Positions 15,286-32,790 of a DNA stretch of 38,813 nt are shown piece after piece. Each line of letters opens with the position of its first letter. Position 1 is the stretch's first letter. The DNA lies in the NCBI GenBank assembly GCA_050173015.1, contig JBFXLE010000030.1, forward strand, positions 1 through 38,813. The letters are read 5' to 3'. This DNA comes from Calditrichaceae bacterium (GTDB lineage Bacteria > Calditrichota > Calditrichia > Calditrichales > JBFXGD01). The notes under the pieces were generated by a model. That model did not search any database. It was not told where the DNA came from and saw nothing but the letters and a program-made list of their open reading frames with translations. Both the position numbers and the translations under genes were made by a program.

Positions 15286-15345
15286 AAATGGACTTATCTT
15301 TGTCTGAACATGATTAAAATGGAACCAATCATCATGAGAACGGAA

Positions 15346-16800: not shown

Positions 16801-16830
16801 TGGATATCCCTGAAGTTATTCATACGACTA

Positions 16831-18504
16831 TTATTTCAGAACAATCATTTTTATCACATCACGGTACAGATACGAGTTCTCTCCCGCCGGGGCTGAACTT
16901 TTAGAAGTCACTGTCAGCGCGGCGAAATAAATCCCTGAAGGTAACCTTTCGGCGTTAAAACGGAACCGTTTCTTTCCCGGCGTTTCAGAATTTTTATAAA
17001 CAGATTGTATCTTTTCACCAAGGATATTATACAAAACGATTTCTGTAATCCCCGGTTTTGGCTGTTCCCAGATGATGACTGTGGATGCGTTGAACGGATT
17101 CGGAAAATTTCGTAAAGACATCCGATATATTACCGGGCGGTCTCCACCATCCTCCACCGGATTCATCTCATCCGTATTTACAGAATCCGTCACCGGTTCT
17201 GAAAACATTTCTGCTACATCATAGGTATAAATGGCATAATAATATGTGTCCGGGGCAACAAAATTCGAATCTGTAAATGAGGTTCCCGCCGAGTCAAATA
17301 AAATCAGTCCGTCAGTTGGGCTTGTGGGAAATCCATTCGTTTTTCGCAATACCCTGACTCCTACCGCGAGCGAATCAGCAGGGATCTTCCAGGTCAGATT
17401 TATGTGGTCTCCGGATACTGCCGCATCAAAACCGATAACCGGGAACGGATGCGCATACCCTCCAATCATTTCCGGTGTTGAGAAATAATCGCTCATATGA
17501 ATATAACGGGAGTCATCCAGTTCGGAAGCATACGCCGCGCTTATCACCTCGTTTGTGGAAATTCTGCTGTCTGGCCAGGACGCGAACGGACCGCGATCCC
17601 AAGGATCACTGATGTAGATAAATGCCTTTATATGTGGATTGGAATGAATTTTATAAAAATACGGAGCAAACCAGTTGTCAAGATTTGCAGCATTCCCCGT
17701 GCCTTCATCCTGAATCGGACAGGATTCACAGATCATTACCGGTTTTTGATGACTCAGGGCGTCAGCAAGAAATTGGTCTGAATTATCGATCTGATATGCC
17801 GTAAAATAGTTGATTCCCCACCAGTCCACATACTCATCGCCGGGATACCAGTCTAAATAATTAAAAGACTGTGGATTAACCGTATTCCAGACCCAGGAGA
17901 CATTGGTAATGTTCTCACTTTGAAAAATATTGTATATATAGATCCAGACATCGACAAACTCCTGAGCCGAGATATCGGGATCACTGTGCAGTCCGTCGTT
18001 TCCCCGGCCGAATTCAAAACCCGGCCTGATAAAAACCGGATAATTCAAAGATTTTATTCGATCTGCTATTTGAATAATATTATTGTCAAGTTTGCCCGAC
18101 AATATGTCCTGAACAGGGATATTTGTATTCCCATAAATGTATGTGGAATCCAGTAAACCCAGACCCACCACTAGTATGTAAGGATGTTGATGAGCCGAGA
18201 TTAATTCTGAAAAATCCGTAAAATCGATTGAATTGAGAAAAGGATCAATTGACGCGTACACAGAGTAGAGGACGGGGATCTGGCCGGTAGCCGCCTGATA
18301 GTCAGCAACCATTTGCCAATTTTCCTCATCACTGTAATATACAGATATGTACTGTCCTAAGCCATGCAGGACTTTACCGTCCGGCGGCTCGTATTTCACT
18401 CCAAAACCCGCGTAAACCGCCGGGATCAGAAAAAAGGTCAGGATGAATGTGAAGAAAGCGCTATTGTGAATACTCATCCGCTTATTTGGATTCTTTTTCC
18501 GCAT
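16831..18504 (-). CDS. Secreted GH26-family glycoside hydrolase with FN3-like domain and T9SS CTD
   Basis: FIRPGFEF (acid/base), NVSWVW, WYPGDEYVDWWG, KPVMICE (nucleophile); NFPNPFN...SGIYF. Alternative start 18477. Confidence 0.8.
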   Translation of the reverse strand: MRKKNPNKRMSIHNSAFFTFILTFFLIPAVYAGFGVKYEPPDGKVLHGLGQYISVYYSDEENWQMVADYQAATGQIPVLYSVYASIDPFLNSIDFTDFSELISAHQHPYILVVGLGLLDSTYIYGNTNIPVQDILSGKLDNNIIQIADRIKSLNYPVFIRPGFEFGRGNDGLHSDPDISAQEFVDVWIYIYNIFQSENITNVSWVWNTVNPQSFNYLDWYPGDEYVDWWGINYFTAYQIDNSDQFLADALSHQKPVMICESCPIQDEGTGNAANLDNWFAPYFYKIHSNPHIKAFIYISDPWDRGPFASWPDSRISTNEVISAAYASELDDSRYIHMSDYFSTPEMIGGYAHPFPVIGFDAAVSGDHINLTWKIPADSLAVGVRVLRKTNGFPTSPTDGLILFDSAGTSFTDSNFVAPDTYYYAIYTYDVAEMFSEPVTDSVNTDEMNPVEDGGDRPVIYRMSLRNFPNPFNASTVIIWEQPKPGITEIVLYNILGEKIQSVYKNSETPGKKRFRFNAERLPSGIYFAALTVTSKSSAPAGENSYLYRDVIKMIVLK

Positions 18505-18570: not shown

Positions 18571-19890
18571 TTAAAATTTGATGATATTATCATAGTCCGC
18601 TTCAGCCTGATGCTTCTTAAGATCAACGGACAATTTCCCCGCCTTTGCGTAAATATCCTCTCCCAATAATTCCCGGACAGATGAGAGAAGTTCCTGTTCA
18701 TCTAATTTGAAATCGAATCCCGCTAACATTTGATAATCGCCATAGGGCCAGGAATATTCCAGGACATCCATGGGTGTTTCCCGCGCTATCGGAATGATCG
18801 TTTTGCTTACGCCTAATTTCTCCAGTCGCCTTCCGTTTCCTTCCTGTTCTGAATGAGAAGGTATGACAATGGACGGTTTTCCGGACAGCACCACTTCCAT
18901 CGCTGTTCCGTAACCGCCGTGAAATATAACCAGGTCACTTTGTCGGATGGCTGATGTTCCCGGCGCCCAATCGACAAATTGTATATTTGCGGATCGGCGG
19001 TTGTACTTTGCCGCTTTTACACGTTTGCCGGTTGAAACGAGTACATCAAATTCTGTTTTGTTGAATGCGGAGATAATCGATTCAAAAAATTGTTTTTCAT
19101 TTGCCCTTGCGGCTCCGCCGCCGATTGTCACATAAATTTTAGGATATTCATCCTTATTATCAAACAAAGGGATGCTTTTACCGGGTCCATGAAATTCTGA
19201 AAGCGCGCCACAATAAATAACGCTGTTTTCATCGTCCTTAACCGGTTCAAGTTTGCGGCTGGACGGGATGACATACCGGTCACCGGTCAGAAGATCTTCC
19301 GCCTTCGACATTCCATTAAACGACAATTTGTCCATGAGATCGCTAAAGGGCATCAGGGCGTCAGGTTCGGTATATGTCCATTTTTTTCTTTCCCACCACA
19401 AAAACTTTGGATGGGGAGGGTAGCCGGCCAGTCGGGTGATCTGGACCACGGGAAGATTAAATTTACGGCCGAGGGGCCAGGTCAGGAAATGTGTATCCCC
19501 CACAAGGATATCCGGCTTGAATTCATCCACAATCTTTGCAAGCTGATTGAATCGATAATTTACCAGCCGCGGACTCAGATAACCGTCCCTCGGAACCTGA
19601 TACGCGAGACTTCCAAAACCAACAAAAACCGGATACTTTGTTATCCGCGTATTCAATTGAACCGCAGGCTTAAAGGGTTTTTTGAATTGATATTTTACAA
19701 TCCGCTCTTTCTTCGTATTGAGCAAAAATGAGCGTATATTTTCTTTTTGGGATGATTTAAAATGTTTCTCTTCGAGAACAATCGCTGAGTCGTGCCCTTT
19801 TTCTCTCAGCTTATTCGCTAAATAAATGCAGCGCGCGACATGCCCGCGGCCACCACCGTGATCACTTGGAATAAATAGTATCTTCGACAT
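18571..19890 (-). CDS. GT-B glycosyltransferase (GT1/GT28-like)
   Basis: GGGRGHVARC, PDILVGD, IYVTIGG, DW.P, FHGGYGT..E....GKP.IVIP...EQ..N..RLE.LG. Confidence 0.85.
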   Translation of the reverse strand: MSKILFIPSDHGGGRGHVARCIYLANKLREKGHDSAIVLEEKHFKSSQKENIRSFLLNTKKERIVKYQFKKPFKPAVQLNTRITKYPVFVGFGSLAYQVPRDGYLSPRLVNYRFNQLAKIVDEFKPDILVGDTHFLTWPLGRKFNLPVVQITRLAGYPPHPKFLWWERKKWTYTEPDALMPFSDLMDKLSFNGMSKAEDLLTGDRYVIPSSRKLEPVKDDENSVIYCGALSEFHGPGKSIPLFDNKDEYPKIYVTIGGGAARANEKQFFESIISAFNKTEFDVLVSTGKRVKAAKYNRRSANIQFVDWAPGTSAIRQSDLVIFHGGYGTAMEVVLSGKPSIVIPSHSEQEGNGRRLEKLGVSKTIIPIARETPMDVLEYSWPYGDYQMLAGFDFKLDEQELLSSVRELLGEDIYAKAGKLSVDLKKHQAEADYDNIIKF

Positions 19891-22390
19891 CCATTTCCTT
19901 ATCTGTTCGCTCTAGTATTAAGATTTCACCTTTTCCACCGTCAACCCTTATTCGGTCTCCTGTTTTTATTACTTTTGTAATCCCCGTAACTGCCGTTACC
20001 ATCGGCAAACCGTATTCACGGGCTATGATCGCGCCGTGTGAAAGCGCTCCGCCTATCTCGGTCACCACTGCCGATGCGTTTACAAACAGCGGCGTCCATC
20101 CGGGATTAGTCGATTTTGTAATCAGAATTTCATTTTTCTTCAAAGACTCCGCAGTTTCAGGATCATCCAGCACCCTGGCGAATCCTTCCACAATACCACC
20201 GCTGCATCCAATCCCTGAATACAAATCGCCGTCGGAAAATTCGTGCCTTTCGGCCGGAATCCATTGCCCGCCAATCTGACGAAGCACGGCCGGATGCATT
20301 TCAGACAGCATTCTTATTCGTTCTTCTTTTCGCTTCTGAATGGTTGGAATATATGCAAAAAACTCATTTCCCGTAACAACTATTTTTTCGATTTCCCCAT
20401 GAGTTAAAAACAGTATATCAAGAGGTTCTGAAAGCGAATGATTGTTGTCGGAAATCTCAGCGATGCTCAAAACATGCTTTTTTAACTCGCTATGAGCATG
20501 AATCAACGCTTGTTTTAGATTTTCACGGAATGTCGTAAAAAACTCCGTTCTTTTAAGTACATAGTTAAAAAATAACTTTTTAGGGGTTTTCCCTAATCCG
20601 GATATTGACCTGAGGGCAAGACTTATATTCCGCTTTCTCTCATCGGCCAGCGCCGAAAATTCCCTGACCGTGTGCTTAGAATTCATTCCCTGCAGATACC
20701 TTCGGATACCCAGATAAACAATACCCGGATCTTCCCGCCAGCGCGGATAGTAGAGTTCAAATTCATGAAAAGAATTATGCCCGTATTTTTCGATGAATTG
20801 ATCTATCAGGCTAAATATTTCTTTCCCTTCCGGTGTCTTCATTAATTCGGCTTCGATGGATTTATAATTTTTTTTATGGATAAATAATTCCGCAATCCGC
20901 TTATTCTTCGCCGCGACGTCAGCCAAAGATCTAAGCTCGGCGCCGCTCCTGGCGCTGTCGGCTGAATTGAGTCCGGTGAGCAGCATATCCGCGCTGATAT
21001 CGATTTGCGGTTTAATCCAGGTTGAGCACCATTTGTTCAATAGTTGATAATAAATCTCGCCAAAAATCGTTCCGGCAATATGGCGCGTCATTATTTTGCT
21101 CTGCAAATCCCTGATAGCTATGATCTTATCGAATGATTCTTTCGCGGAATCCCTTTTAAGATATCTGAGTTTCATTAATTGTTCAGGAAAAGATTTCAAA
21201 AGATTTTTAATTTCTCCCGGCAATTTTATCGAAAAAAATCCGATATAAATCAAACTTTTTAAGAGCAATAATTTCTTATGGATACCTTTGTATGTGCTCA
21301 GATAAAATATGTTTAAAGTATTTTCAAGCGCCGTTTTGTTAAGATATACTTTCCCCTTGTAGAGTCCGAACAAGCCTTCATCCGGATAGGACCTGATTCC
21401 AACGCGTTTCAGAAAATGCTTAAATGCTCCGTTGGTCAGCGGATTCAGCAGACTCCATGTATATGGGGTCACGATATCTGGTATTACTTCTCCGACATTT
21501 TCATCCGTCCAGATGATTTCATCAGCCGGGCGCAGTTTCGCGGTGACCGGACGCGCCTGTAAAAAATAAATGTCATGATCCCTTATCGCCCATTCCAGAT
21601 CCAGCGGAAACCCGAATTTTTTTTCCAGTTTCAGGGCGTGTGAAGCGAGACGGATATATAAATCATTTATATTCAGATCTTTTGATCTTTTAAGAAGGGC
21701 TTTTTTATTGATAATAATCCGCTCAGGAGTCGCCTCACCGCTGACCAGTGTATCACCGGTTCCTTCCACATATTCGATCATCAGTTCCTTTTGGTTTCCG
21801 GAGGACGGATTCACCGTAAACAATACACCGGCCAGATCTGATTGAATCATTTTCTGAATGATGACACCCGGCCCCTGATCGATGGATAACATCCCGCGCG
21901 TTTTTTGATAGATAAGATTCCGCGGGTTAAACTGAGAGCTCCAGACCATCTTAACCGCGTTTAATATGTCATCCGGATTATTTCTGACGTTCAATACTGA
22001 ATCATACTGACCGGCAAAAGATTGATCCGTCAGGTCTTCACTCAATCCCGAAGACCTGACGGCAAGCGTATCGCCGGGGGCAAGATTCAGCCGGCTGACG
22101 CCTGATTCAATTTCGGACCGTATTTTTAATGGGACATCAGCCTTTAGAAAGGCATTTTGCAAGTTCCCGCTCACTGCCCGGATTTCATCTTCCGGATTTA
22201 TACCCAACATTCCATTAAGATCTTTCAAAAGCGAATTTTTTTTCAAATAGAATGAATAAGCCCCGGGCGATAGAAATACGGAGGCCGGAATCCTGACTCC
22301 CATTTTACTGAGTTTTATCAGATTATAAGCCTTCTGTCCCACCCGCTCCGGATTTACATTTTCATTGATCAAATGTATAAATTGATACAT
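19862..22390 (-). CDS. PEP-utilising dikinase of RPH/PigC architecture (ATP-grasp, central substrate domain, His swivel)
   Basis: VGQKAYNL, LAVRSSG..ED....SFAGQY, LDLEWA, FLQARPVT, WT..NVGE..P...TP, YGH....E.EL..PRW.EDP, T.PGWTPLF, GGALSHGAIIAREYG.P. Confidence 0.9.
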   Translation of the reverse strand: MYQFIHLINENVNPERVGQKAYNLIKLSKMGVRIPASVFLSPGAYSFYLKKNSLLKDLNGMLGINPEDEIRAVSGNLQNAFLKADVPLKIRSEIESGVSRLNLAPGDTLAVRSSGLSEDLTDQSFAGQYDSVLNVRNNPDDILNAVKMVWSSQFNPRNLIYQKTRGMLSIDQGPGVIIQKMIQSDLAGVLFTVNPSSGNQKELMIEYVEGTGDTLVSGEATPERIIINKKALLKRSKDLNINDLYIRLASHALKLEKKFGFPLDLEWAIRDHDIYFLQARPVTAKLRPADEIIWTDENVGEVIPDIVTPYTWSLLNPLTNGAFKHFLKRVGIRSYPDEGLFGLYKGKVYLNKTALENTLNIFYLSTYKGIHKKLLLLKSLIYIGFFSIKLPGEIKNLLKSFPEQLMKLRYLKRDSAKESFDKIIAIRDLQSKIMTRHIAGTIFGEIYYQLLNKWCSTWIKPQIDISADMLLTGLNSADSARSGAELRSLADVAAKNKRIAELFIHKKNYKSIEAELMKTPEGKEIFSLIDQFIEKYGHNSFHEFELYYPRWREDPGIVYLGIRRYLQGMNSKHTVREFSALADERKRNISLALRSISGLGKTPKKLFFNYVLKRTEFFTTFRENLKQALIHAHSELKKHVLSIAEISDNNHSLSEPLDILFLTHGEIEKIVVTGNEFFAYIPTIQKRKEERIRMLSEMHPAVLRQIGGQWIPAERHEFSDGDLYSGIGCSGGIVEGFARVLDDPETAESLKKNEILITKSTNPGWTPLFVNASAVVTEIGGALSHGAIIAREYGLPMVTAVTGITKVIKTGDRIRVDGGKGEILILERTDKEMDVEDTIYSK

Positions 22391-23322
22391 CAGAATTTGA
22401 TTTCCTCAAAAAACAAATCTACCGGCGCGCTATCATATTTCAGATATTTGCGATAACGATTATACCTGACGTTCGCAAAAAGGTAAACGAACTTTTTTAA
22501 CAGCATTTTATTTGAAATAAAAAATAAAATCATTTCGATGGTTTTCCCTATCCACTTAAAACGAGGGGATAAATTGAACATGTAAAAAGGATAGTTTTCT
22601 ATCAAAAATGATTTATCGATGGTAAAAAGAAATTCCTCCTGATTACCCCTGATTGCAATTTGGCGTCCGTTATCTTTTTTTTCAGGATGATCATCCTGAT
22701 GGTACTCCCTGCCGTCTGAATGGATGCAAATGGATCTTTTTTCACCGGATTTTCCAATAATTTCCCCGTATATTAGAATTGAATCTCCCAAATAAAACTT
22801 ACCCCAATACCACTGTTTTAGCATATCATTCATCCTAAAATTACCGGCATTATAGTCATGATAGCCCCGGCCTTCGAAAAAATGCTGCTGATCATCACAA
22901 CAGAATTCAGCTTTAGCTCGGCACAAAGGACTATATAAAATCCATTTAAAATGATTGTTTTTTTCCGTGTCAGGCATTAATTCAATTTCTTTTCCCCTCC
23001 TGTTTAAGGAAGGATCATTCAGTTCAATTTTTAGCACCATATTTTCATCCTGAGCAGAGACAATCAAACGATCACCGTCATTCCTGATGAAATTGTATTG
23101 ATCATAATAGACCTGGAAAGCATCATAATTTTTTCGAAGCAGATGGATCGGTTTGCTAAAGAATTTATGCAGATAAGGCCGATTGTTTTTGTAAATAAAC
23201 AGGTCAAACAAGGCCACTGGGAATACCGTGTTAAATGGTTTTGTATGCAGTGTAAAAATGATATCATATCCATTTTGAGTATGAATATCAAAATAATACC
23301 ACTCAAATTCTGAATTTGACAT
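22390..23322 (-). CDS. CrtC/AttH-like (lipocalin-type double barrel) hydratase or cyclase
   Basis: FEWYYFD near the N-terminus, H.KW...P, GRGYHDYNAG, WYWGK; TGATG overlap with the dikinase start. Confidence 0.65.
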   Translation of the reverse strand: MSNSEFEWYYFDIHTQNGYDIIFTLHTKPFNTVFPVALFDLFIYKNNRPYLHKFFSKPIHLLRKNYDAFQVYYDQYNFIRNDGDRLIVSAQDENMVLKIELNDPSLNRRGKEIELMPDTEKNNHFKWILYSPLCRAKAEFCCDDQQHFFEGRGYHDYNAGNFRMNDMLKQWYWGKFYLGDSILIYGEIIGKSGEKRSICIHSDGREYHQDDHPEKKDNGRQIAIRGNQEEFLFTIDKSFLIENYPFYMFNLSPRFKWIGKTIEMILFFISNKMLLKKFVYLFANVRYNRYRKYLKYDSAPVDLFFEEIKF

Positions 23323-23391
23323 TGGATCGCTCGCAATATAATTGGATTTGGAAATTTATTAAAAATAAGAAGATGATTTATTCATTGAGAA

Positions 23392-25611
23392 TCAATGGAT
23401 TAGAATCATTTTTCTGGTTTGGTGCGATGCTCCGTTGAGCATTCTGACGAAATAAATCCCTGAACCGGCCGGATTTCCCGCGTCTGTCCTGCCATCCCAG
23501 GTAATTTCATAATCACCGCTTGTGAACTGCTTTTCGGTTAATCGTCTTATCTTTTGTCCCTTGACATTAAAGACATCAATGACTATCTGACCGGGAATAT
23601 GAAGTCTGAAGGGTATAGTCGTCACCGGATTAAAAGGATTCGGGTAGTTTTGGAGTAGCACGAAACTTTCCGTTATCGCTTCCGGCGGAGAGGACAAAAT
23701 GAATACCGGTTTGTGTGATGTTCGGACACCTGAATAGGAAATGTCTTCGAGCATGTACCAGTAATTTGTATCTTTCTCAATTTCTGTATCCAGGAAAGTG
23801 TACCGATTTCTGCTGCTGCTGTTACCCGCTCCGGGAATTAATTTTTGATTGATTTTGATAAATTCCGCTTCCGGCGGATACAATGTATCATTACCGGCTG
23901 CCCTGTAAATATTATAGCCCGTATTCTCCAGTTCGGATTCGGTTGCCCACTCAATCTGAATGCCGTCTGACACATGGAATGCCTGAAATGATGTAAGTTC
24001 TACCGGCAGGCTGGCGTCACCGTTTTGGAGATATACAATCACTTTTCTGAGTGTCGGCGTATTATTTGAATAAAATCTTAATTCGTAGTTTCCCGCGTTG
24101 AGATTTCCCTGAAGCAGTACGGATTTTACTTCTCCGAACAACTGGTTTCCATACCAGGATTCCGCTGTTTGCCAGCCATAGTCTATTAGTAGGTTCCCGC
24201 CCTGATAGAGAGTGACTTTCAAATCATCGTCAGCGCTGTCATCTACATTTGGGCTGTCTGATCCAGGCCCTTCAAATGACCAGCCCGGATTTTCATCCGC
24301 GGACGCGGTCGCATAAATGGCGACCAGGCCATCTTGTGAGCAGGTAAACGGGATGGACTGAAGTAAATAATTAGAACTGCCGCTCGGTCCGGTGACATTA
24401 AAATCCTGATTGATCAGGGCTTCGCCGTTAATCGCGTTCAGGACGGTGGCGTCATATAAGATGGGTGTGATCCGGCTGAATATCTGAAGCTGATGCGCCC
24501 CGGCGGGAATGATGGAATCGATGACCACCGTTTTAGTGGCGGTTTGCAAAATATTTCCGTCCCATCCTTTCGCGCCGGTGTATCCATAATCCTTATTATC
24601 AATTTTGATCTTCATTTGATCCTGACTGTCATAACTGTCATATTCTTCCGCTTTTGCCGTCACGATGATCACCGCCCTGCCGCCGTCGGAATTGAAGGAA
24701 TAATTTTTCCATAACCGTTCATCTCCCGGCGCGATTTCATTCGCGTATTCACGTAATTTTATCACACCCGAAGGACTCACGCTATACCCGATCGGATCAG
24801 AGCCAACAATGATCTGAACATAATCTGTCAAAAATTCGTTTGTCCCCGTCCACACCCTGTTATAAATCTCCAATCTGAATGAATCACCGACCGTCGGAAT
24901 ATTATGATAAATTTGATTATCTATCCACATATGAAAATCATAATCATAGTCAGGCAGATCACTTTCAGAATTCATGACCAAACTTCCATCCACATAATAT
25001 TCGATATTTGACATCCCGTAGCGCCGCATTTCATACGTATGCCAACCGGATTGATAACCGGTGGATAAATCAAGACGATCCACGCTTGAGTAAACAGGGC
25101 CGTTTACTTTTTGTGTCTGCCACCAGGTTTCGCTTGCCGTCCAGGGGTGTCCGTCCTCTTCCTTAGATTCCATAAACCAATATTGTTCTAAAATTGTGGG
25201 AATGCTATTACCTTCAGTATACCAGAATCCCCATCCGCGGCTCCCGGGTAAATGGGGAGTTAAGAATTTTACACGGGTTTTAAACAAGACCACATCATCG
25301 CCGGTATAAAGATTATCAACGGGATCACGCTTCGCCGACTCGATAGCCACATTATTCATAGGAAGCCACCAAGGGAAATAAGCGTTTAGTTTCGGATCTC
25401 TTAACAGGAAATGTAGATAACCATTATTCACGGCCGGTTCAATCTGTGCTGTTCCGACATTCGGCGGAAAATCAGCCCGAAAATACCACCAGTCTCTTTT
25501 CTTTTCAAAATCATCACGCTGAAGCTGTGGTACGATAACGGTCTGACCTGCCAGATCGATGGCAAAGATGAGTATTAAAAATATCCCTGTTCTTACAGAA
25601 CCTGATAACAT
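23392..25611 (-). CDS. Secreted protein: ConA/GH16-like domain, two copies of an unassigned beta-rich domain, LPVEL Ig module, T9SS CTD (paralog A)
   Basis: Signal peptide; GSRGWGFW, WHTYE..R...YYVDG, FHMWIDN; LPVELTSF; QNYPNPFN..SGIYF. Confidence 0.8.
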   Translation of the reverse strand: MLSGSVRTGIFLILIFAIDLAGQTVIVPQLQRDDFEKKRDWWYFRADFPPNVGTAQIEPAVNNGYLHFLLRDPKLNAYFPWWLPMNNVAIESAKRDPVDNLYTGDDVVLFKTRVKFLTPHLPGSRGWGFWYTEGNSIPTILEQYWFMESKEEDGHPWTASETWWQTQKVNGPVYSSVDRLDLSTGYQSGWHTYEMRRYGMSNIEYYVDGSLVMNSESDLPDYDYDFHMWIDNQIYHNIPTVGDSFRLEIYNRVWTGTNEFLTDYVQIIVGSDPIGYSVSPSGVIKLREYANEIAPGDERLWKNYSFNSDGGRAVIIVTAKAEEYDSYDSQDQMKIKIDNKDYGYTGAKGWDGNILQTATKTVVIDSIIPAGAHQLQIFSRITPILYDATVLNAINGEALINQDFNVTGPSGSSNYLLQSIPFTCSQDGLVAIYATASADENPGWSFEGPGSDSPNVDDSADDDLKVTLYQGGNLLIDYGWQTAESWYGNQLFGEVKSVLLQGNLNAGNYELRFYSNNTPTLRKVIVYLQNGDASLPVELTSFQAFHVSDGIQIEWATESELENTGYNIYRAAGNDTLYPPEAEFIKINQKLIPGAGNSSSRNRYTFLDTEIEKDTNYWYMLEDISYSGVRTSHKPVFILSSPPEAITESFVLLQNYPNPFNPVTTIPFRLHIPGQIVIDVFNVKGQKIRRLTEKQFTSGDYEITWDGRTDAGNPAGSGIYFVRMLNGASHQTRKMILIH

Positions 25612-25718
25612 TCCTTCCCCCCGAAAGTCCGTGGCCTGTTTAAGAAGCTTCTATTCTATAGTAATAATATTAAAAATTAATACCGCGCTGTTGTTGATTT
25701 ATCACACACTTTGTTGAG

Positions 25719-27875
25719 TTATTTTATATATAAAATTTTTGCAACGTCAGACGCTTGCATGGAAGGGAGTGACAGACGGACATAATATATTCCGGACGCG
25801 ACCGGCTGACCCTTTCTGTTTTTTCCGTTCCAATCATAGAAATAATTCCCCGGCTCATGCATGCCTTTAGTCAATGTCCTGATCTTTTCTCCGGATGAAT
25901 TGTATATTTCCAGAATCAGATTTAATTTTTCAGACAAAACAAAACTGATGGTCGTATTACCGTTGAACGGATTCGGGTAGTTCTGGTTGAGCTTAAATTT
26001 TTGCGGATTGATGCCCCGGGTGATTTTTAAGGTATCATGAACAGTAATTTCCCCTGAAATGGAGATGTCCTCCAGGTAATACCGGTAAGTGCCCCCGGAG
26101 GCTATATGATTATCTTCAAATTGATAATCATGTGAATGACTGCTGGTGCCGGCGCCCGGTATTATTTCCGAATTGATTTTAGAAAATGCGTCGACCATTT
26201 GTTCAGCATGATCCGTCGAGACAGAACGGTAAATGTTAAATCCCAGATTATTGATTTCTGAGGCGGTTTGCCATGTGATTACATTTGAATATTTTTCCGG
26301 TGAAATGTTGAAATTTGTCAGACTGACCGGTAGAGATACATCATCCATTTCCCCATAAATTAATACTCTGAATATCTCCGGCGTCCCCTGACCATAAATT
26401 CTTAAAGTGTGGGTGCCCGATGTCAGGTTTTCCGTGATAAGGATGGACTTTGGCTCGCCAAAAAGACGGTTTCCATACAGCGATTGCTCCGTTTGATAAC
26501 CGTAATCCATACCATCCAGTACAATCCTGATATCATCATCTTCATCATCATTGTACTGTGAATACTGATATCCGTGCTGGTAGGATGGAGATGGTGTCGG
26601 GTCCTCATCCGCGGCGCCCGCGACATAAATCGCGACTTCACCTCCATGGGTCTGAAAACTGATTTCTTTCCACAGTTCCGGACTGGATGAAGATTTAATT
26701 TCATTGTATTCCTGATTAAAAACAATGCCCCCTCCGATACTCCCGAGAACGGTTACATCATATAAAAGAGGAGATATTTCGCCGTAAACATCAATATTCG
26801 CGTTTCCTGAGCTCATTGTTTTCTCAAATAACAATGTTTTTGAAATAGTCCCCTGATCGTCGGCATTAAAAGAATTAGGAGAATCCCATCCATAATCGGT
26901 GCCATCAATGACATAGCGGATATCATCATCGCCACTGATCGGCTGGCTATTGGCGTCAAGATATTGCTCCACGCGGGCGGTGCTCAGCACAACCACCTGG
27001 CCGCCGGGAGAATCAAAGTTTAAATTGTACCAGGAATTTGCGGTCTCTTTATCATAAATTTCATTAGGTACATGTCTGAGTAATTTAATTCCGGAGGCCG
27101 CTTCGCTTTTATCAAGCTGGCCGCTGGTGAGAATCTGGACATAATCCAAAACGATTTCATTTTTTCCTGTCCATTCCCTCAGATTTAAATTAATAATATC
27201 CGGCTCCACATGTTCATACACCACATTATCCACCCAAATATGAAAAGCCATTGGTCGCGGGGGAAGATCCTGTGTGGCATAAAATACCTGAACGCCGTCA
27301 ATTTTAAACTCGATATAGCTTTCCTGGCGATCTATTTCATAGACATGCCATTGCTGATCGTCTATAATATGCGGCGCCTGATCAAGCTCAACAAAATGAT
27401 GCGTCGCTTCGGTTCTCCCGTTCGCCGTTTCCGCCCGCCACCAGTCCAGACCTGTCAGCGAAGGATCGTCGTACACCATCATATACCATGCCTGATTCTG
27501 TACGTTTGGCTGAGGCTCGCTGTGCCAAAGGCCCCAGCCTCGTGAACCATACTTATGCGGATTCAGGGATTTTGCCCGCAGTTTTATTTTGCAGTTTAGG
27601 TAGGGCCCGCCAATTCCCGGATATCCATCCCATAACGCGGAATCTGAAAATGGGCGATCAGAGGCAATCGGGTCCACCAGCGAAAACAATACATGGCCAT
27701 TATTTACGGATGGCATGGGCGTATTGCTTCCATCACCCCACCAGCTCCACCACGCGCGACGCGTCGTGCCCACATAGTCATCCCTTTTTAAATCAAGCTG
27801 AGCATAGGCTTCCAGAGCGCAGATGAAAAGGGTAAAAACGCCTATTATAATTCGATAGATAATATAATAACTCAT
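25719..27875 (-). CDS. Secreted protein, tandem paralog of 23392..25611 (paralog B)
   Basis: Signal peptide; GSRGWGLW, WHVYE..R..FKIDG, FHIWVDN; LPVSLTNF; QNYPNPFN..SGIYY; ATGA overlap with the UbiA gene. Confidence 0.8.
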   Translation of the reverse strand: MSYYIIYRIIIGVFTLFICALEAYAQLDLKRDDYVGTTRRAWWSWWGDGSNTPMPSVNNGHVLFSLVDPIASDRPFSDSALWDGYPGIGGPYLNCKIKLRAKSLNPHKYGSRGWGLWHSEPQPNVQNQAWYMMVYDDPSLTGLDWWRAETANGRTEATHHFVELDQAPHIIDDQQWHVYEIDRQESYIEFKIDGVQVFYATQDLPPRPMAFHIWVDNVVYEHVEPDIINLNLREWTGKNEIVLDYVQILTSGQLDKSEAASGIKLLRHVPNEIYDKETANSWYNLNFDSPGGQVVVLSTARVEQYLDANSQPISGDDDIRYVIDGTDYGWDSPNSFNADDQGTISKTLLFEKTMSSGNANIDVYGEISPLLYDVTVLGSIGGGIVFNQEYNEIKSSSSPELWKEISFQTHGGEVAIYVAGAADEDPTPSPSYQHGYQYSQYNDDEDDDIRIVLDGMDYGYQTEQSLYGNRLFGEPKSILITENLTSGTHTLRIYGQGTPEIFRVLIYGEMDDVSLPVSLTNFNISPEKYSNVITWQTASEINNLGFNIYRSVSTDHAEQMVDAFSKINSEIIPGAGTSSHSHDYQFEDNHIASGGTYRYYLEDISISGEITVHDTLKITRGINPQKFKLNQNYPNPFNGNTTISFVLSEKLNLILEIYNSSGEKIRTLTKGMHEPGNYFYDWNGKNRKGQPVASGIYYVRLSLPSMQASDVAKILYIK

Positions 27876-28909
27876 TGCCTTATTTTCTTTAAGATTAACA
27901 ACGGATAACTATTGATATACGTTTTTAAACTCAGCATATTTTTATTGAATAAGAATGCAAGCAGTACAAGAGCAAAGAGCAGATTATTTGTTATGAGTAT
28001 GATAATAAACGCCAGAGGCAGCATTACAGACGGATAAGCATGATGCAGAAATTGAAATATATTTTTTTCATTAATCCTGAACGGATTCCGGTCTGCTCCG
28101 TTCCCGATTCTGAAATAACTGAAGATGAGCAGTATAAGATAAATGATTGTCAGAATACTGAATATTATTGTATATCCGGCCGGATAATTCTGAAAACGCC
28201 AGACAAAAAGCAGCAATACCGCCGCAAATAATAATTTTTCAACTTCAAGTATCAGGTGGAATAAGTTCCTGATTCTTTCCAGACCCGCGGTAACCGCGAA
28301 GGTGTTTGTCGAAGTTTTCTTATCCAAATGAAAATCTTCTATTTGATGATTGACATCAGACGACAGTCCCCGCGTCAGAATATAGAAAGTAATAAGAATT
28401 ATATCTGTCAAATAATTGAATCTGAATGCGGCGAAAACCAGCAGAACAGGCAGCACTCTCTGCGCAAAGACCACAACCATAAGTCCGGTTTTCCCTCTTT
28501 CCTTCAGCCTTACAGGTTTCACTGAATAGAATATGGCCGCCAAAGTCCACAGCGTCCACAAGAAGGCAAAATAACGATTTGATATGAAATTTATCGCGGG
28601 GAGCGCGCTCAGGATAAAAACAGCAATGACCACGCCTGTAGCGATGCTCACTTCGGTGTTTTCGAATGTATTTGGTTTTTTGTGTTTTTTGTCAAGTTCA
28701 CGATCGGCCAGATCGTTTATCAGGTATCCGAAGGAAGTTGAAAAGATGCTAAAAATATAAAATAACAGCAGATTGATGAGAAATGTATTTGAATAATCTC
28801 TTGTGATAAGCGAAATATAGAAAACTACAAAGATGTTCTCAATGAATGAGTTATAGGAAAATACGGCCCAGTTTCGCCAGCCAAGCGTTTTTTGAAGGAT
28901 ATTTAACAT
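27872..28909 (-). CDS. UbiA-family membrane prenyltransferase
   Basis: GYLINDLADRELD..(K)PN (NDxxDxxxD), FYS..P.RLK, HQIEDFHLD....TNT; multiple TM helices. Confidence 0.85.
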   Translation of the reverse strand: MLNILQKTLGWRNWAVFSYNSFIENIFVVFYISLITRDYSNTFLINLLLFYIFSIFSTSFGYLINDLADRELDKKHKKPNTFENTEVSIATGVVIAVFILSALPAINFISNRYFAFLWTLWTLAAIFYSVKPVRLKERGKTGLMVVVFAQRVLPVLLVFAAFRFNYLTDIILITFYILTRGLSSDVNHQIEDFHLDKKTSTNTFAVTAGLERIRNLFHLILEVEKLLFAAVLLLFVWRFQNYPAGYTIIFSILTIIYLILLIFSYFRIGNGADRNPFRINEKNIFQFLHHAYPSVMLPLAFIIILITNNLLFALVLLAFLFNKNMLSLKTYINSYPLLILKKIRQ

Positions 28910-29035
28910 AAATACCGTTTTATTTTAATCTCTCTTTGGATCCTTTTTAATAAGATAGGTCATCCTGTAAGCGTGAGATTGATTGTCAGCACAAAAAATG
29001 CAAAAAAAATTGGCAGGAAGATTTCAACAGGTACA

Positions 29036-29061
29036 AGCCTCATTGCGTGAACAATGAGGCT
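29036..29061. other. Perfect 10-bp inverted repeat between the GGPPS and UbiA genes
   Basis: AGCCTCATTG-CGTGAA-CAATGAGGCT; no long U-tract immediately adjacent. Confidence 0.55.
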
Positions 29062-29110
29062 CCCTGAAAAGTTCAGTAAAGCAAAAGCAGGTTTGAAATA
29101 TTTCGGTTAA

Positions 29111-29989
29111 CTAATACCCTCTGTTTATCAAATAATCACCAAATTCAATAATTTTTTTCCCTTTTCCCTTGAATACAGACATGGAAGCTTTTGCCGTTTT
29201 AATATAAGTTTTGGCGTATTTTTCAGCTTCCTTCATTCCGACAAGTCTGACAAAATTCATTTTATCTTTGTTCAGATCTTTTCCAACCAATTTTTCATCC
29301 CCTTTAACATCCAGGATATCGTCTGTTATCTGGAAAGCGAAACCGACATTTTCAGAGAATACTTTAATCGCGTCCAGTTGCTCTTCCGACGCGTGACCGA
29401 TAATCGCGGCAACTTCTCCCGCTGCCGTAAATAGTGCGGCTGTTTTTTTGGCATTTATAAATTCGATAATCTCATATTTAATATTTTTTCGCTTCAATTT
29501 AAGATCCACATACTGACCCGCCGCGAGCCCATTTATTCCAAATGAAGCGCCTAAAAGATTTGAAGCCCGATTCCGTTCATCCAGCCCCAGTCCCTGATCG
29601 CTCAAAACAAGCCTGTTTGCTTCCGAAATGAGCGCAATACTCGCGCACAATGCCACATCCTGCCCGAAAACGATATGATTTGCCGGTTTCCCACGTCTTA
29701 ATTCGGCATTATCCATATAGGGCAGATCATCCATAATCAGAGACGCCGCATGAATCATTTCAATGGCAACGGCGGTGGTAAGTAATTTCTCGGGTTTGAC
29801 ATCAAATATCTCGCCAACCAGAAAAGCAAAAAGCGCGCGCACCCGTTTTCCGTCATTTAGAGAATAATTAATGGATTTGTAAAGACCTTCCAGAAGCGGT
29901 TCTTCTTCTCCCCAGTAATTTTCAATTTTTTCATCAACCATGGATTTGAATATCTGGTACTCTGTTGAAAAATCATACTTCGGATCCAT
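29111..29989 (-). CDS. crtE: Polyprenyl diphosphate synthase, CrtE-like (probable GGPP synthase)
   Basis: GKRVR, EMIHAASLIMDDLPYMD...RRG (FARM with small A/S at -5/-4), GQYVD, KT, FQITDDILD. Confidence 0.75.
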   Translation of the reverse strand: MDPKYDFSTEYQIFKSMVDEKIENYWGEEEPLLEGLYKSINYSLNDGKRVRALFAFLVGEIFDVKPEKLLTTAVAIEMIHAASLIMDDLPYMDNAELRRGKPANHIVFGQDVALCASIALISEANRLVLSDQGLGLDERNRASNLLGASFGINGLAAGQYVDLKLKRKNIKYEIIEFINAKKTAALFTAAGEVAAIIGHASEEQLDAIKVFSENVGFAFQITDDILDVKGDEKLVGKDLNKDKMNFVRLVGMKEAEKYAKTYIKTAKASMSVFKGKGKKIIEFGDYLINRGY

Positions 29990-31881: not shown

Positions 31882-32790
31882 CTACTCATCAAACTTTGGT
31901 ACAAATAATCCTTTCGCGAACCCCAGGGTCCATGGACCGAGCCCCAGAGCGAACACCAAAAAGGATGGAATGTGTTTCTTTAATATTGCCGGGTTGACTT
32001 TTGCAAAAACTGTAAATGTTCTGTAAAATTTTATTAACGGCAGCAATGGCAGACTTATAAGCGCTAAAAACTTTTTCCGCACCAAGCTCGATCCGTCAAG
32101 TTCAATTTTTTTTAGTAAACTGGAAGTAATATACCCGATATTTTTCTGATGTTTTAAAAAATAGACCAACCGATTTCTGTGAAAATGAAATATTTTTATC
32201 TCCGGATCAAAATATATTTTAAACCCGTTTTTAGTGAAATGATGATTAAAAAACAGATCTTCCTGCGGGTAATAATCGGCATTAAAACTTCCCGTTGTCA
32301 AAAATTTGTCCCGCCTGTAACTGATATTGCAGGTCGGAAGATGGCTACGGATCGAAGAAGGGTGTCCCGGGATAAATTCCCTGAATTCGGCTATATACCC
32401 CGCCCAGCCAACCACATCAGTTTCCGGATTCGCGGGGTAAATACTGCCCCCTACGGCATCATAATCTGAATTTTTATATGCGCCGGTAATCTTATTGATC
32501 CAATCCTTTCCGGCAATGCAATCAGAATCCAGGAACAATATGTATTCCCCATGGGACACATTAACTCCCATATTTCGGGCGGTTCCCGGATCAGTTTTTT
32601 TCTTACAGCTGATCAACTTAACATCGGGAAAACCGTCCGTTACGATTTGCCGTGTATTATCTGTTGAACTATCTACCACAGTGATTTCAAATTTTTTATC
32701 ATAGTCCTGTTTCATCAGACTAGTAAGACAGGCACTTATGGTATCAGCAGAATTATAGGACGGGATAACGACAGATACTTCAATATTCAT
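31882..32790 (-). CDS. GT2-family glycosyltransferase
   Basis: SVVIPSYN, VVDSSTD, ARNMG, FLDSDC, TCNIS, QED; C-terminal hydrophobic helices. Confidence 0.9.
   Translation of the reverse strand: MNIEVSVVIPSYNSADTISACLTSLMKQDYDKKFEITVVDSSTDNTRQIVTDGFPDVKLISCKKKTDPGTARNMGVNVSHGEYILFLDSDCIAGKDWINKITGAYKNSDYDAVGGSIYPANPETDVVGWAGYIAEFREFIPGHPSSIRSHLPTCNISYRRDKFLTTGSFNADYYPQEDLFFNHHFTKNGFKIYFDPEIKIFHFHRNRLVYFLKHQKNIGYITSSLLKKIELDGSSLVRKKFLALISLPLLPLIKFYRTFTVFAKVNPAILKKHIPSFLVFALGLGPWTLGFAKGLFVPKFDE

Follow-up and report, generated by a model that had tools for sequence, protein, structure and literature searches.

The reading of this locus to which we give an even chance is that seven co-directional genes of a Calditrichaceae bacterium (GCA_050173015.1, contig JBFXLE010000030.1, positions 1-38,813 of the forward strand; this whole stretch of 38,813 nucleotides is the window) form the operon-like core of a Calditrichota lineage-specific locus that makes an isoprenoid-lipid-linked (C20) cell-envelope glycoconjugate. 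Gene identities, folds, catalytic motifs, gene coupling, synteny and co-occurrence were observed directly, and acceptor, product and step order are what we infer from the chemistry of the enzyme families. Such a pathway would run as follows: i) a dedicated CrtE-type synthase would supply a C20-class prenyl diphosphate; ii) on the inner side of the membrane, an orphan UbiA would put the prenyl chain on a non-aromatic acceptor, and in most relatives a geranylgeranyl (GG)-reductase-family enzyme would saturate part of the chain; iii) a cytoplasmic AttH/CrtC-fold enzyme would protonate an isoprene double bond and add water, leaving a tertiary alcohol; iv) a translationally coupled RPH-type dikinase would phosphorylate a lipid hydroxyl via phospho-histidine, and a GT1 would attach a sugar taken from a nucleotide sugar; v) GT2 enzymes would extend the glycan, Wzx would flip the lipid-linked product and, in relatives, a GT-C would use it on the outer side; and vi) interleaved T9SS-secreted GH16-like/GH26-like proteins may bind, trim or carry the exported glycan.

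A literature search found no published description of this gene set, in line with the initial annotation, which had proposed an undescribed pathway. Hydration of isoprenoid membrane lipids by an AttH-like enzyme is documented in a preprint (bioRxiv 10.1101/2025.10.20.683597).

Architecture and conservation of the locus

The seven genes occupy positions 18571-29989 on the minus strand (Table 1). The initial annotation had named five of them as a set; their ORF coordinates are all correct, and both overlaps that it reported are present in the sequence, namely TGATG at the CrtC-like/dikinase junction and the 29 nt shared by the dikinase and GT1 genes. The five are nevertheless not contiguous, as two genes for secreted T9SS proteins, T9A and T9B (4.4 kb), sit between UbiA and the CrtC-like gene. 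The UbiA stop and the T9A start overlap by 4 nt (ATGA), which couples T9A translationally to UbiA. Also missing from that gene list was the wider conserved context of GT2, double GT2, GT-C, Wzx flippase, GG-reductase-family gene and more T9SS cargo. No terminator-like sites were found between the genes, and the terminator count did not rise above that of shuffled sequence (21 vs 16.4 ± 3.2). The statement that crtB/crtI, SHC, GGGP synthase and men/ubi genes are absent from the window held true in a Pfam scan that covered all 27 of its distinct ORFs with a length of 120 aa or more; elsewhere the genome carries two SQS_PSY, one PcrB and nine other UbiA-family genes.

Table 1. Genes of the core and its flanks, with window coordinates
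Feature	Position	Strand	Length	Remark
Single GT2	31882-32790	-		PF00535; upstream flank
Double GT2	30084-31841	-		PF00535; upstream flank
Polyprenyl (CrtE-type) synthase	29111-29989	-	292 aa	
UbiA-superfamily membrane transferase	27872-28909	-	345 aa	
T9A secreted T9SS protein	25719-27875	-	718 aa	
T9B secreted T9SS protein	23392-25611	-	739 aa	
CrtC-like (AttH/CrtC fold) protein	22390-23322	-	310 aa	
RPH/PigC-type dikinase	19862-22390	-	842 aa	
GT1/GT28-type glycosyltransferase	18571-19890	-	439 aa	
GH26-like T9SS protein	16831-18504	-		downstream flank; Pfam/NCBIfam
Wzx/MOP flippase	15346-16800	-		downstream flank; Pfam/NCBIfam
FG-GAP T9SS protein	12991-15285	-		downstream flank; Pfam/NCBIfam

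Conservation was followed across 61 related genomes, which are not independent samples and include the window's own (G000), and 17 loci were fetched. The order synthase–(short secreted paralogue)–UbiA–secreted protein(s)–CrtC-like–dikinase–GT1 was found on one strand in 13/17 loci at 28-62% protein identity; among the remaining four, three end at contig ends yet agree that far, and one is split. CrtC-like and UbiA genes were each found in 30 genomes (both in 28, one alone in 4, neither in 29). Moreover, the CrtC-like and dikinase genes are adjacent in 16/17 loci by tblastn (the dikinase ORF being complete in 15), and a far-off metagenomic locus has a secreted protein followed by a CrtC-like protein (25% identity) and a dikinase (32% identity). 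Co-occurrence and synteny in Calditrichota relatives, a check set beforehand, thus bore out the earlier proposal that the five genes belong to one unit.

Two genomes depart from this pattern: G020 has UbiA and its secreted protein on one contig and the triad of CrtC-like, dikinase and GT1 genes on another, and G047 has UbiA without a CrtC-like gene, a GH26-like homologue (44% identity) directly following UbiA. Thus the two modules can exist apart. This separability, together with a gene content of the locus that varies between genera, is what neighbouring genes without shared function might display, but we regard that explanation as very improbable, as order and strand persist in 13/17 loci down to about 30% identity, CrtC-like and UbiA occur together in 28 of the 32 genomes with either, and stop/start overlaps are found at three junctions.

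The prenyl enzymes and the glycan genes around them

Every enzyme scored below its NCBIfam equivalog cut-offs, so a specific activity is not transferable from the characterised families. The synthase matched PF00348 in Pfam at 154.9 bits and scored 221.6 bits for FPPsyn (cut-off 275) and 191.6 for GGPPSynCrtE (cut-off 460), under both cut-offs, and equivalog level was thus not reached. Both Asp-rich motifs are present, the first as DDLPYMD at residue 87 (context IHAASLIM|DDLPYMDN) and the second as DDILD; in a scan of 14 orthologues, the first motif of L023 reads DDLPYMK, and the second motif DDxxD was not found in L018 and L023. In CrtE-type GGPP synthases the rule is that the residue five positions ahead of the first Asp-rich motif (-5) is small. 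The window synthase and 14/14 orthologues have Ala at -5 and Ser at -4, and a paralogue on C6 of the same genome has Phe at -5. The cluster synthase is the genome's third polyprenyl synthase, the other two being on C6 and C5. It is predicted to be a short-chain trans-isoprenyl diphosphate synthase of the CrtE type, probably a GGPP synthase, and its chain-length region agrees with the earlier CrtE-like label.

The UbiA protein matched PF01040 in Pfam at 56.9 bits (cut-off 34.2). Its best NCBIfam match was ChlG (38.2 bits vs cut-off 313), with weaker scores for homogentisate phytyltransferase (29.1 bits) and DPPR (18.1 bits), and none reached equivalog level. Both Asp-rich motifs, N65-D66-x2-D69-x3-D73 and D192-x3-D196, are unchanged across 14 orthologues, and a YSxPPLRLKE-type loop is present. 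In a tree confined to the nine genomic paralogues (3 CtaB, 1 MqnP-like, 2 DGGGPS-like, 2 MenA-like and 1 orphan) and 17 cluster-type UbiA sequences, with no outside references, the latter formed one clade (100/99) set apart by a branch of length 8.48. The initial annotation had named grouping with housekeeping clades as a refuting outcome; UbiA did not group with the MenA, MqnP/UbiA-like or CtaB copies, all encoded elsewhere in the genome. The best PDB matches of its profile were chlorophyll a synthase 9sau (E-value 2.4e-7; 33.4 bits over 221 profile positions) and DPPR synthase 8j8j (0.0087; 18.4 bits over 82). It appears to be an orphan superfamily member whose nearest relative of solved structure, by these weak similarities, is chlorophyll synthase, a C20-prenyl transferase.

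This placement invites comparison with ChlG/BchG, homogentisate phytyltransferase and DGGGP synthase, each of which has a GGPP synthase and a geranylgeranyl reductase as partners. This C20-prenyl-transferring branch of the superfamily has in common with our locus the UbiA Asp-rich motifs and loop, a neighbouring CrtE-type synthase and, in the clusters of relatives, a GG-reductase-family gene. Unlike all three systems, the UbiA here is a separate long-branched clade, and the locus is without tetrapyrrole, homogentisate or GGGP-synthase genes; the genome's own DGGGPS-like and PcrB genes sit outside it.

Around the core, a GT-C gene (PMT_2) lies directly upstream of the synthase in 14/14 synthase-bearing loci (14/17 overall), and a GG-reductase-family gene is found in 10/17 loci (TIGR02032, 192.4 bits vs cut-off 158.8). 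The double GT2 is syntenic in 9/17 loci and the single GT2 in 6/17, several loci stopping short of them; Wzx is present in 10/17, and the FG-GAP protein was detected by tblastn in 10/17. Among polyprenyl-phosphate sugar transferases, AglJ (69.9 bits) and ArnC (65.8 bits) come nearest to the double GT2 in its N-terminal half, although neither score reaches its cut-off. An SDR epimerase gene also belongs to the locus, and T9SS cargo genes are numerous around the core. The window's genome is without four genes of the relatives' clusters, namely the GT-C, the GG reductase, a 221-aa methyltransferase and a 248-aa gene; a search of the rest of that genome gave no close copy, its GG-reductase paralogues being only 27-30% identical. 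Thus either the pathway is variable, or the parts played by these four genes are dispensable.

The weak DPPR-synthase match (0.0087) means that the UbiA donor could be of the phosphoribosyl type and not a prenyl diphosphate. A similar set, made up of a UbiA-family enzyme, several GT-C enzymes and a GT2 with two functions, is found in the arabinogalactan cluster of mycobacteria. By analogy, UbiA would be a DPPR-synthase-like enzyme that makes a lipid-linked sugar donor for the GT-C, within an ordinary polysaccharide cluster in which the synthase feeds only the carrier lipid, a proposal which the 8j8j and DPPR matches, the fixed GT-C position upstream of the synthase, the double GT2, the Wzx flippase and the SDR epimerase all favour. 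We consider it unlikely, however: the chlorophyll synthase match is both stronger and longer than that to 8j8j, a C50-55 carrier lipid needs neither a short-chain trans synthase nor a GG reductase, and the CrtC-like–dikinase–GT1 triad is left without a role. Wzx/GT-C-dependent surface glycan loci (O-antigen, ArnT/PMT-type glycosylation, mycobacterial arabinogalactan) also contain GT2 enzymes, a MOP-family flippase, a GT-C (here in relatives) and secreted glycan-active proteins, but a trans-prenyl synthase of their own, a GG reductase, an AttH-fold enzyme and an RPH-type dikinase are normally absent from them.

The CrtC-like protein, the dikinase and the glycosyltransferase

No Pfam family, PF07143 included, matched the CrtC-like protein, and the NCBIfam CrtC score was 28.7 bits (cut-off 400). 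Its AF2 model (pLDDT 92.0, pTM 0.90) found in Foldseek AttH 2ich (8.9e-11), kievitone hydratase 7a0t (6.4e-9), entries titled in the PDB as 25-phosphosteroid lyase (9fzn, 9g2i and 9g4c; E 1.3e-8 to 2.3e-8, TMq 0.50-0.52) and the Diels-Alderases Fsa2, Phm7 and CghA. A widened sequence profile matched 2ich (2.4e-8) and 7a0q (2.3e-4), D156 falling on the conserved Asp in the alignment, and gave no sequence link to 25-phosphosteroid lyase. A search of 1.84 billion proteins gave 54 representative clusters at E < 1e-30, a small family; Pfam CrtC (PF07143) was detected in 15/25 distant relatives and AsqO_C in 6/25, and a ~40-aa N-terminal extension of distant relatives is absent from the 310-aa protein, in which no signal peptide was found. 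Thus model, Foldseek and widened profile upheld the CrtC/AttH fold named in the initial annotation despite the missing Pfam match. The protein is confidently modelled in the AttH/CrtC fold and is predicted to be cytoplasmic; its candidate activities are those of a hydratase, lyase or cyclase working on isoprene units.

CrtC, kievitone hydratase and the AttH-like hydroxy-GDGT synthase have in common with it the two-barrel fold and the conserved Asp in the (Y/W)xD(x)NWG region. According to the preprint, these three convert an isoprene double bond into a tertiary alcohol, and the archaeal hydroxy-GDGT synthase acts on an isoprenoid membrane lipid and has a gene that overlaps its partner gene, as at this locus (bioRxiv 10.1101/2025.10.20.683597). 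The partner gene differs: here it encodes a dikinase and neither a radical-SAM desaturase nor a carotenoid enzyme.

The dikinase consists of PPDK_N (196.2 bits, residues 15-232) and a PEP-utilizers mobile domain (79.7 bits, 751-821); the PEP/pyruvate-binding barrel is absent, with no Pfam domain after residue 821. Its best PDB match was 5fbs/5hv1 (about 1e-67, aligned over residues 440-826), which is rifampin phosphotransferase according to PMC13534948. The motif GGALSH785GAIIARE, with H785 as the catalytic His, is invariant in 16 orthologues. Equivalog scores were 310.7 bits for RPH (cut-off 999), 304.8 for PigC (1300) and 305.2 for RedH (1350), all below cut-off. By its domain content the protein is an RPH/PigC-type dikinase, as earlier named, with predicted ATP-grasp, substrate-binding and His swivel domains. 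RPH and PigC/HapC/RedH have the same three domains, the catalytic His motif and no PEP-binding barrel (PMC13534948); unlike them, the dikinase here has no rifamycin or prodiginine genes nearby and is kept within an isoprenoid/glycan locus.

The GT1 gene product matched PF04101 at 43 bits (cut-off 22), in accord with the GT1-like assignment made before, and scored 74 bits for the MGT subfamily TIGR01426, below the cut-off of 260, so that membership of that subfamily is not supported. Its orthologues are 48-57% identical in the 15 loci that have the gene. By sequence it is assigned as a GT1/GT28-type (GT-B) nucleotide-sugar enzyme, of the kind acting on lipophilic acceptors.

The close bond between the CrtC-like and dikinase genes allows a second chemistry, in which the dikinase would phosphorylate a tertiary or allylic isoprenoid alcohol and the AttH-fold partner would use the phosphate as a leaving group, with elimination to an alkene or capture of the carbocation (cyclisation, C-O or C-C coupling) as outcomes. 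Its models are the couple of 25-hydroxysteroid kinase (25-HSK) and 25-phosphosteroid lyase (25-PSL) and the phosphorylate-then-displace logic of PigC, and all that sets it apart from the glycoconjugate reading is how these two steps are ordered and what chemistry they perform. Several lines of evidence are consistent with it: i) 25-PSL is among the top Foldseek neighbours of the CrtC-like model; ii) the two genes overlap (TGATG), adjoin in 16/17 loci and stay together at 25%/32% identity in the distant locus; iii) for tertiary steroid phosphoesters, a kinase carries out the synthesis and a C-O lyase distinct from it the removal (PMC8449060); iv) PigC/HapC-type relatives of the dikinase phosphorylate an oxygen for its displacement (PMC13534948); and v) the basic residues H14, H26, H52, K175 and R289, invariant in the CrtC-like subfamily and not so in the wider CrtC-like set, could bind phosphate. 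In Sterolibacterium denitrificans, the 25-HSK/25-PSL pair joins an AttH-fold enzyme (9fzn) to an ATP-dependent kinase acting on the tertiary carbon of an isoprenoid chain (PMC8449060, PMC11061730). On the other hand, 25-HSK is described in PMC8449060 as an ADP-forming enzyme of about 40 kDa; it comes from a family unrelated to the 842-aa dikinase, its gene does not lie beside a lyase gene (PMC8449060), and that system is catabolic whereas the present locus looks biosynthetic. Moreover, the CrtC-like sequence profile links to AttH and kievitone hydratase and not to the lyase, and with the hydratase-family Asp (D156) kept, plain hydration fits equally well. We think the phosphate-displacing couple improbable.

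Secreted proteins and the envelope context

Returning to the glycoconjugate reading, the surrounding GT2, GT-C, Wzx and T9SS genes speak for an envelope glycoconjugate linked to a lipid and not for a free meroterpenoid, which the initial annotation had offered as an option. In the latter case UbiA would prenylate a quinol or phenol acceptor, the AttH-fold enzyme would form a ring as tocopherol cyclase does, and after that the phenol would receive a phosphate and/or a sugar. Such a route would suit the weak UbiA matches to homogentisate phytyltransferase (29.1 bits) and chlorophyll synthases, the combination in relatives of synthase, UbiA, small methyltransferase and GG/MenJ-like reductase, which is typical of prenylquinone pathways, the presence of cyclising enzymes (Diels-Alderases) in the AttH superfamily, with AsqO_C in 6/25 distant relatives, and the activity of such dikinases on aromatic or polyketide hydroxyls, e.g. 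of rifampin. We doubt it nonetheless: the surroundings are envelope glycan genes, no gene for synthesis or supply of an aromatic acceptor was found in the window or the 17 loci, the methyltransferase and the reductase are missing from the window's genome, and a small-molecule pathway would leave the constant GT2, GT-C, Wzx and T9SS proteins, some of them coupled to UbiA, without explanation.

The two secreted proteins of the core are paralogues (35% identity) with N-terminal signal-like segments, and both carry the T9SS C-terminal sorting domain TIGR04183 (29.4 bits in T9A, 38.1 in T9B; cut-off 23); T9A also has a FlgD_ig match of 41 bits. The T9SS itself is present in the genome, as a PorU-like sortase on C19 of G000 scored 833 bits against a cut-off of 420. 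The AF2 model of T9B (mean pLDDT 77.3) is all-beta and multi-domain; Foldseek related it to kappa-carrageenase 5ocq (GH16, TMt 0.44) and to FN3 arrays, and its N-terminal domain resembled GH16-like clusters in the Atlas at TM 0.6-0.7. From this modelled paralogue, T9A would comprise a GH16-like jelly-roll, two beta-sandwich domains, an FN3-like domain and the T9SS C-terminal domain. The canonical form of the GH16 ExDxxE motif was not among the invariant columns of the secreted proteins, whose putative role in glycan handling is suggested solely by likeness of fold. T9B orthologues with complete ORFs occur in 15/17 loci.

Gene content and conservation of the cluster

The window comprises an entire 38.8-kb contig of a 4.34-Mb, 97.5% complete genome, and an ORF scan revealed seven long ORFs on the minus strand of its 18571-29989 stretch. 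All five genes listed by the initial annotation (CrtE-type synthase, UbiA, CrtC-like protein, dikinase and GT1) were present, but two more, encoding the paralogous T9SS-sorted secreted proteins T9A and T9B and occupying 4.4 kb of the 11.4-kb stretch, had been overlooked. The overlaps described earlier (TGATG at 22390 and 29 nt at 19862-19890) were verified, and an additional ATGA overlap joins the UbiA stop to the T9A start. The upstream flank of the cluster encodes a single and a double GT2, a methyltransferase and an SDR epimerase. Downstream, two T9SS proteins (GH26-like and FG-GAP) accompany a Wzx/MOP flippase, a radical-SAM/SPASM protein and a PorV-like protein.

Coordinates of cluster genes and of further features in the window and in other contigs or loci
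Feature	Position	Strand	Length
Synthase (IDS)	29111-29989	-	292 aa
Spacer between synthase and UbiA	28910-29110	-	201 nt
UbiA	27872-28909	-	345 aa
T9A	25719-27875	-	718 aa
T9B	23392-25611	-	739 aa
CrtC-like	22390-23322	-	310 aa
Dikinase	19862-22390	-	842 aa
GT1	18571-19890	-	439 aa
Polytopic membrane protein	35921-37465	-	514 aa
Second dikinase-like gene	1859-4861	+	1000 aa
Glutamate/leucine-dehydrogenase-family gene	347-1720
Glutamate/leucine-dehydrogenase-family gene	5074-6321
PorV/UPF0164-like gene	10330-11649
Radical-SAM/SPASM gene	11800-12888
Stretches dense in T9SS cargo genes	9195-18504 and 37622-38779
PcrB/GGGP-synthase-family gene (window's own genome)	G000:C26:51376-52071
DGGGPS-like UbiA gene (window's own genome)	G000:C10:90524-91372
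DGGGPS-like UbiA gene (window's own genome)	G000:C24:38231-39298
Split UbiA gene (related genome G002)	L015:6502-7544
UbiA and GH26-like genes (related genome G047)	L063:3208-5759

Every cluster component belongs to a known superfamily, and none reaches an equivalog cut-off. A literature search returned no paper on a Wzx/GT-C glycan locus in which a trans-prenyl synthase, an orphan UbiA, an AttH-fold enzyme, an RPH-type dikinase and a GT1 occur together with interspersed genes for T9SS-secreted GH-like proteins; the initial annotation likewise did not recognise the set as a described pathway.

The initial annotation had made its proposal depend on co-occurrence of these genes in other genomes, and such co-occurrence was found among 61 genomes of Calditrichota (the window's own included; these are relatives, not independent samples): the CrtC-like gene and the cluster-type UbiA were each present in 30, both together in 28 and neither in 29. 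The CrtC-like gene stood without UbiA in G031 and G032 (88% and 83% complete), and UbiA without the CrtC-like gene in G036 (72% complete) and G047 (98% complete). The CrtC-like gene spreads over four of eight families and 16 of 40 genera. Moreover, 13 of 17 fetched loci kept the order synthase–UbiA–secreted protein(s)–CrtC-like–dikinase–GT1 on a single strand; three ended at contig edges and were consistent as far as they reached, while the G020 locus carried CrtC-like–dikinase–GT1–Wzx–FG-GAP only. A metagenome scan with a narrower CrtC-like alignment yielded four loci, three of them unrelated high-GC CrtC-like genes and one informative: L058, far more divergent, where a secreted protein is followed by a CrtC-like protein (25% identity) and a dikinase (32% identity). 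That the cluster genes are unrelated neighbours is, in our estimate, highly improbable. The cluster is a conserved unit restricted to a poorly known phylum, with two notable pairings: i) the AttH-fold enzyme with the dikinase, and ii) UbiA with a secreted protein.

The relatives' loci also hold additional complete ORFs: a GT-C (PMT_2) membrane glycosyltransferase of about 535 aa that immediately precedes the synthase (14 of 17 loci, and all 14 that hold the synthase); a shorter secreted-protein paralogue between synthase and UbiA (13 of 17), where the window has a spacer only; a geranylgeranyl-reductase-family gene after Wzx (TIGR02032, 192.4 vs 158.8 bits; 10 of 17); an unknown gene of about 240 aa (9 of 17) and a small methyltransferase of about 220 aa (7 of 17), both between GT1 and Wzx; and DUF2809 ahead of the CrtC-like gene (4 of 17). 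The GT-C, reductase, methyltransferase and unknown gene are absent from the window cluster, and no close copy of them was found elsewhere in the genome. A polytopic membrane protein in the window, for which no Pfam or NCBIfam match was obtained, has a weak, colinear resemblance to the relatives' GT-C and may be a divergent GT-C standing in for the one missing beside the synthase. Within the spacer lies a 9-bp inverted repeat, GCCTCATTG...CAATGAGGC, at about 29033-29056, with no T-tract behind it.

Enzymes of the cluster

The synthase matched PF00348 at 154.9 bits and fell under all NCBIfam equivalog cut-offs. The first Asp-rich motif of the protein (IHAASLIM|DDLPYMDN) has Ala at -5 and Ser at -4, as in all 14 orthologues, and by the chain-length rule it is presumably of the CrtE/GGPP-synthase type. 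Since the genome holds two other polyprenyl synthases (contigs C6 and C5), the cluster synthase is an extra, dedicated copy.

The UbiA protein scored 56.9 bits in Pfam (cut-off 34.2), with NDxxDxxxD and DxxxD motifs invariant; a single-sequence search of PDB sequences gave no match, and a Protein Atlas search returned generic UbiA clusters only. The genome has ten UbiA-family genes, nine of them outside the cluster: three heme O synthases, one MqnP/UbiA-like, two DGGGPS-like, two MenA-like and one orphan. In a tree of cluster-type sequences and the genome's own paralogues (no outside references), the 17 cluster-type sequences formed a single clade (100/99, branch length 8.48) separate from all nine; they did not group with a housekeeping clade, a grouping that the initial annotation had named as refuting its proposal. 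The cluster UbiA of G002, whose genome is complete in one contig, falls into two overlapping ORFs (177 and 230 aa), owing to either a frameshift or an assembly error.

With a UbiA profile the closest solved relative was chlorophyll a synthase (2.4e-7, 221 positions), while the match to decaprenyl-phosphate phosphoribosyltransferase was far weaker (0.0087, 82 positions). A phosphoribosyltransferase-like UbiA that supplies a sugar donor to GT-C would agree with the GT-C adjacency, but it is at odds with the stronger chlorophyll-synthase match, the short-chain synthase and the reductase, and we regard it as unlikely; an ordinary polysaccharide locus with such a UbiA would be a finding of lesser interest. 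An archaeal-type DGGGP synthase was rejected for the cluster UbiA because separate DGGGPS-like genes lie on C10 (289 bits vs PRK12884 cut-off of 269) and C24, and a PcrB-family gene (141.6 bits) on C26. These PcrB and DGGGPS-like genes constitute, in a bacterium, a gene set for archaeal-type isoprenoid ether lipids.

By sequence models the CrtC label was insecure, as the protein had no Pfam match and reached just 28.7 bits with NCBIfam CrtC (cut-off 400); a single-sequence search of PDB sequences gave a chance-level match only (E 0.99). An AlphaFold2 model from 18 orthologues (pLDDT 92.0, pTM 0.90), searched against the PDB with Foldseek, matched AttH (2ich, 8.9e-11), kievitone hydratase (7a0t, 6.4e-9), 25-phosphosteroid lyase as named by PDB entry titles (9fzn/9g2i/9g4c, 1.3e-8 to 2.3e-8) and the fungal Diels-Alderases Fsa2, Phm7 and CghA, at TM-scores of about 0.5-0.6. 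When 1.84 billion representative proteins were searched by profile, 932 relatives came up at E ≤ 1e-3 but only 54 at E ≤ 1e-30; of 25 of the more distant ones, 15 carried Pfam CrtC and 11 the Diels-Alderase N-terminal domain. The widened profile reached AttH (2.4e-8) and kievitone hydratase (2.3e-4) by sequence, and the invariant D156 (GRGYHDYNxG) aligned with the Asp of their WxDxxW(G/S) region. Therefore, from the model fold, the domains of distant relatives and the widened-profile matches with D156, the protein, which has no signal peptide, represents a small and divergent cytoplasmic branch of the AttH/CrtC superfamily, and the earlier CrtC/AttH-fold label is borne out. A carotenoid cluster was rejected: neither the window nor any of the 17 loci contains an SQS_PSY or CrtI-type gene, the two SQS_PSY genes of the genome lie on other contigs, and no PF07143 CrtC was found in the genome.

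The dikinase consists of PPDK_N and a His swivel domain without the PEP-binding barrel, with His785 (within GGALSHGAIIARE) invariant in 16 orthologues. Its best matches among PDB sequences were the solved rifampin phosphotransferases 5fbs and 5hv1 (about 1e-67), the latter identified as such, with a three-domain mechanism, in PMC13534948. GT1 is a GT-B enzyme (PF04101, 43 bits; MGT subfamily, 74 bits vs cut-off of 260). A complex prediction for dikinase residues 290-842 and the CrtC-like protein, both as alignments, scored 0.00, which speaks neither for nor against binding. Elsewhere in the window, a second dikinase-like gene, unrelated to that of the cluster, encodes a weak receiver domain, a weak DUF5752 match and a PPDK_N nucleotide-binding domain, and is flanked by two glutamate/leucine-dehydrogenase-family genes.

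A candidate glycoconjugate pathway

For the cluster, the analysis shows gene identities, folds, motifs, coupling and conservation. As the reading with the best support, we give an about even chance to a lineage-specific pathway for an isoprenoid-lipid-linked envelope glycoconjugate, whose substrates, products and step order we infer as follows: i) the dedicated synthase would make a C20-class diphosphate; ii) UbiA would join the chain to an acceptor, the geranylgeranyl reductase saturating it in most relatives; iii) the AttH-fold enzyme would hydrate an isoprene unit, as CrtC, kievitone hydratase and the archaeal hydroxy-GDGT synthase are documented to do (bioRxiv 10.1101/2025.10.20.683597); iv) the coupled dikinase would phosphorylate a lipid hydroxyl and GT1 would glycosylate the lipid; v) GT2 enzymes, Wzx and, in relatives, GT-C would extend, flip and use the product; and vi) the GH-like T9SS proteins would bind it or act on it. 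On the other hand, a free meroterpenoid or chromanol, as a reading of the initial annotation's proposal, is chemically coherent but leaves the envelope-glycan genes and coupled secreted proteins unaccounted for and has no acceptor-supply gene present; we consider it improbable.

The fixed pairing of CrtC-like and dikinase genes and the fold match to the lyase would also suit a kinase-lyase couple resembling 25-hydroxysteroid kinase (25-HSK) and 25-phosphosteroid lyase (25-PSL). However, in PMC8449060 and PMC11061730 the steroid kinase is an unrelated ~40 kDa protein forming ADP, with no lyase gene beside its gene. We assign this couple a low probability. In a more elaborate proposal, which we consider quite doubtful, the AttH-fold enzyme and RPH-type dikinase would be a conserved biosynthetic unit, a non-homologous counterpart of the catabolic 25-HSK/25-PSL, that makes an energy-rich tertiary isoprenoid phosphate and consumes it, with phosphate as the leaving group, in coupling, cyclising or desaturating a membrane isoprenoid, the lipid serving as lineage-specific surface anchor or ligand for the GH-like T9SS proteins coupled to UbiA.

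Calditrichota are widespread in marine sediments, and to our knowledge their envelope chemistry is essentially unknown. If the envelope-glycoconjugate model holds, the conserved cluster would be a candidate source of a new class of isoprenoid glycolipids or phosphoglycolipids in bacteria. Because the genome also has PcrB/GGGPS-like and DGGGPS-like genes, the locus would then be relevant to the "lipid divide" on its bacterial side. The fixed pairing of AttH-fold enzyme and RPH-type dikinase could, under the model, carry the recently discovered tertiary isoprenoid phosphate chemistry from steroid catabolism into biosynthesis.

Secreted T9SS proteins coupled to UbiA

T9A and T9B share 35% identity, have hydrophobic N-termini and carry the T9SS sorting domain TIGR04183 (29.4 and 38.1 bits respectively, vs cut-off of 23). 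The T9B model (pLDDT 77.3) is a string of beta domains; as a whole it matched by Foldseek mainly generic FN3/Ig arrays at a TM of about 0.1, and the usable match is that of N-terminal residues 25-290 to GH16-like jelly-rolls (TM 0.6-0.7 in an Atlas structure search; kappa-carrageenase 5ocq by Foldseek). The canonical GH16 ExDxxE motif was not found among invariant columns of the secreted proteins, and a single-sequence search of PDB sequences with T9A gave FlgD-like C-terminal-domain matches only.

Gene coupling of a UbiA-family membrane enzyme with secreted T9SS proteins that resemble glycoside hydrolases recurs in three different contexts: the main cluster, G020 and G047. In G020, where the locus is split, the UbiA and T9B-like genes overlap by 4 nt with neither synthase nor triad (CrtC-like–dikinase–GT1) nearby. 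In G047, a genome that lacks the CrtC-like gene, a GH26-like secreted protein, 44% identical to that of window 16831-18504, follows directly at the UbiA stop codon; a distant GT1 (25% identity), a geranylgeranyl-reductase-like gene and a Wzx-like gene lie near, and the arrangement may be a second variant of the locus. A general lipid anchor for T9SS cargo was rejected as the role of the cluster: all 61 relatives have a PorU-like sortase (56 over cut-off) and only about half have the cluster, so the coupling is not a general T9SS requirement.

T9SS cargo genes are unusually dense in the window, where six proteins bear the sorting domain (a 385-aa protein, T9A, T9B, the GH26-like and FG-GAP proteins and a 392-aa protein); among these genes lie the PorV/UPF0164-like and radical-SAM/SPASM genes.
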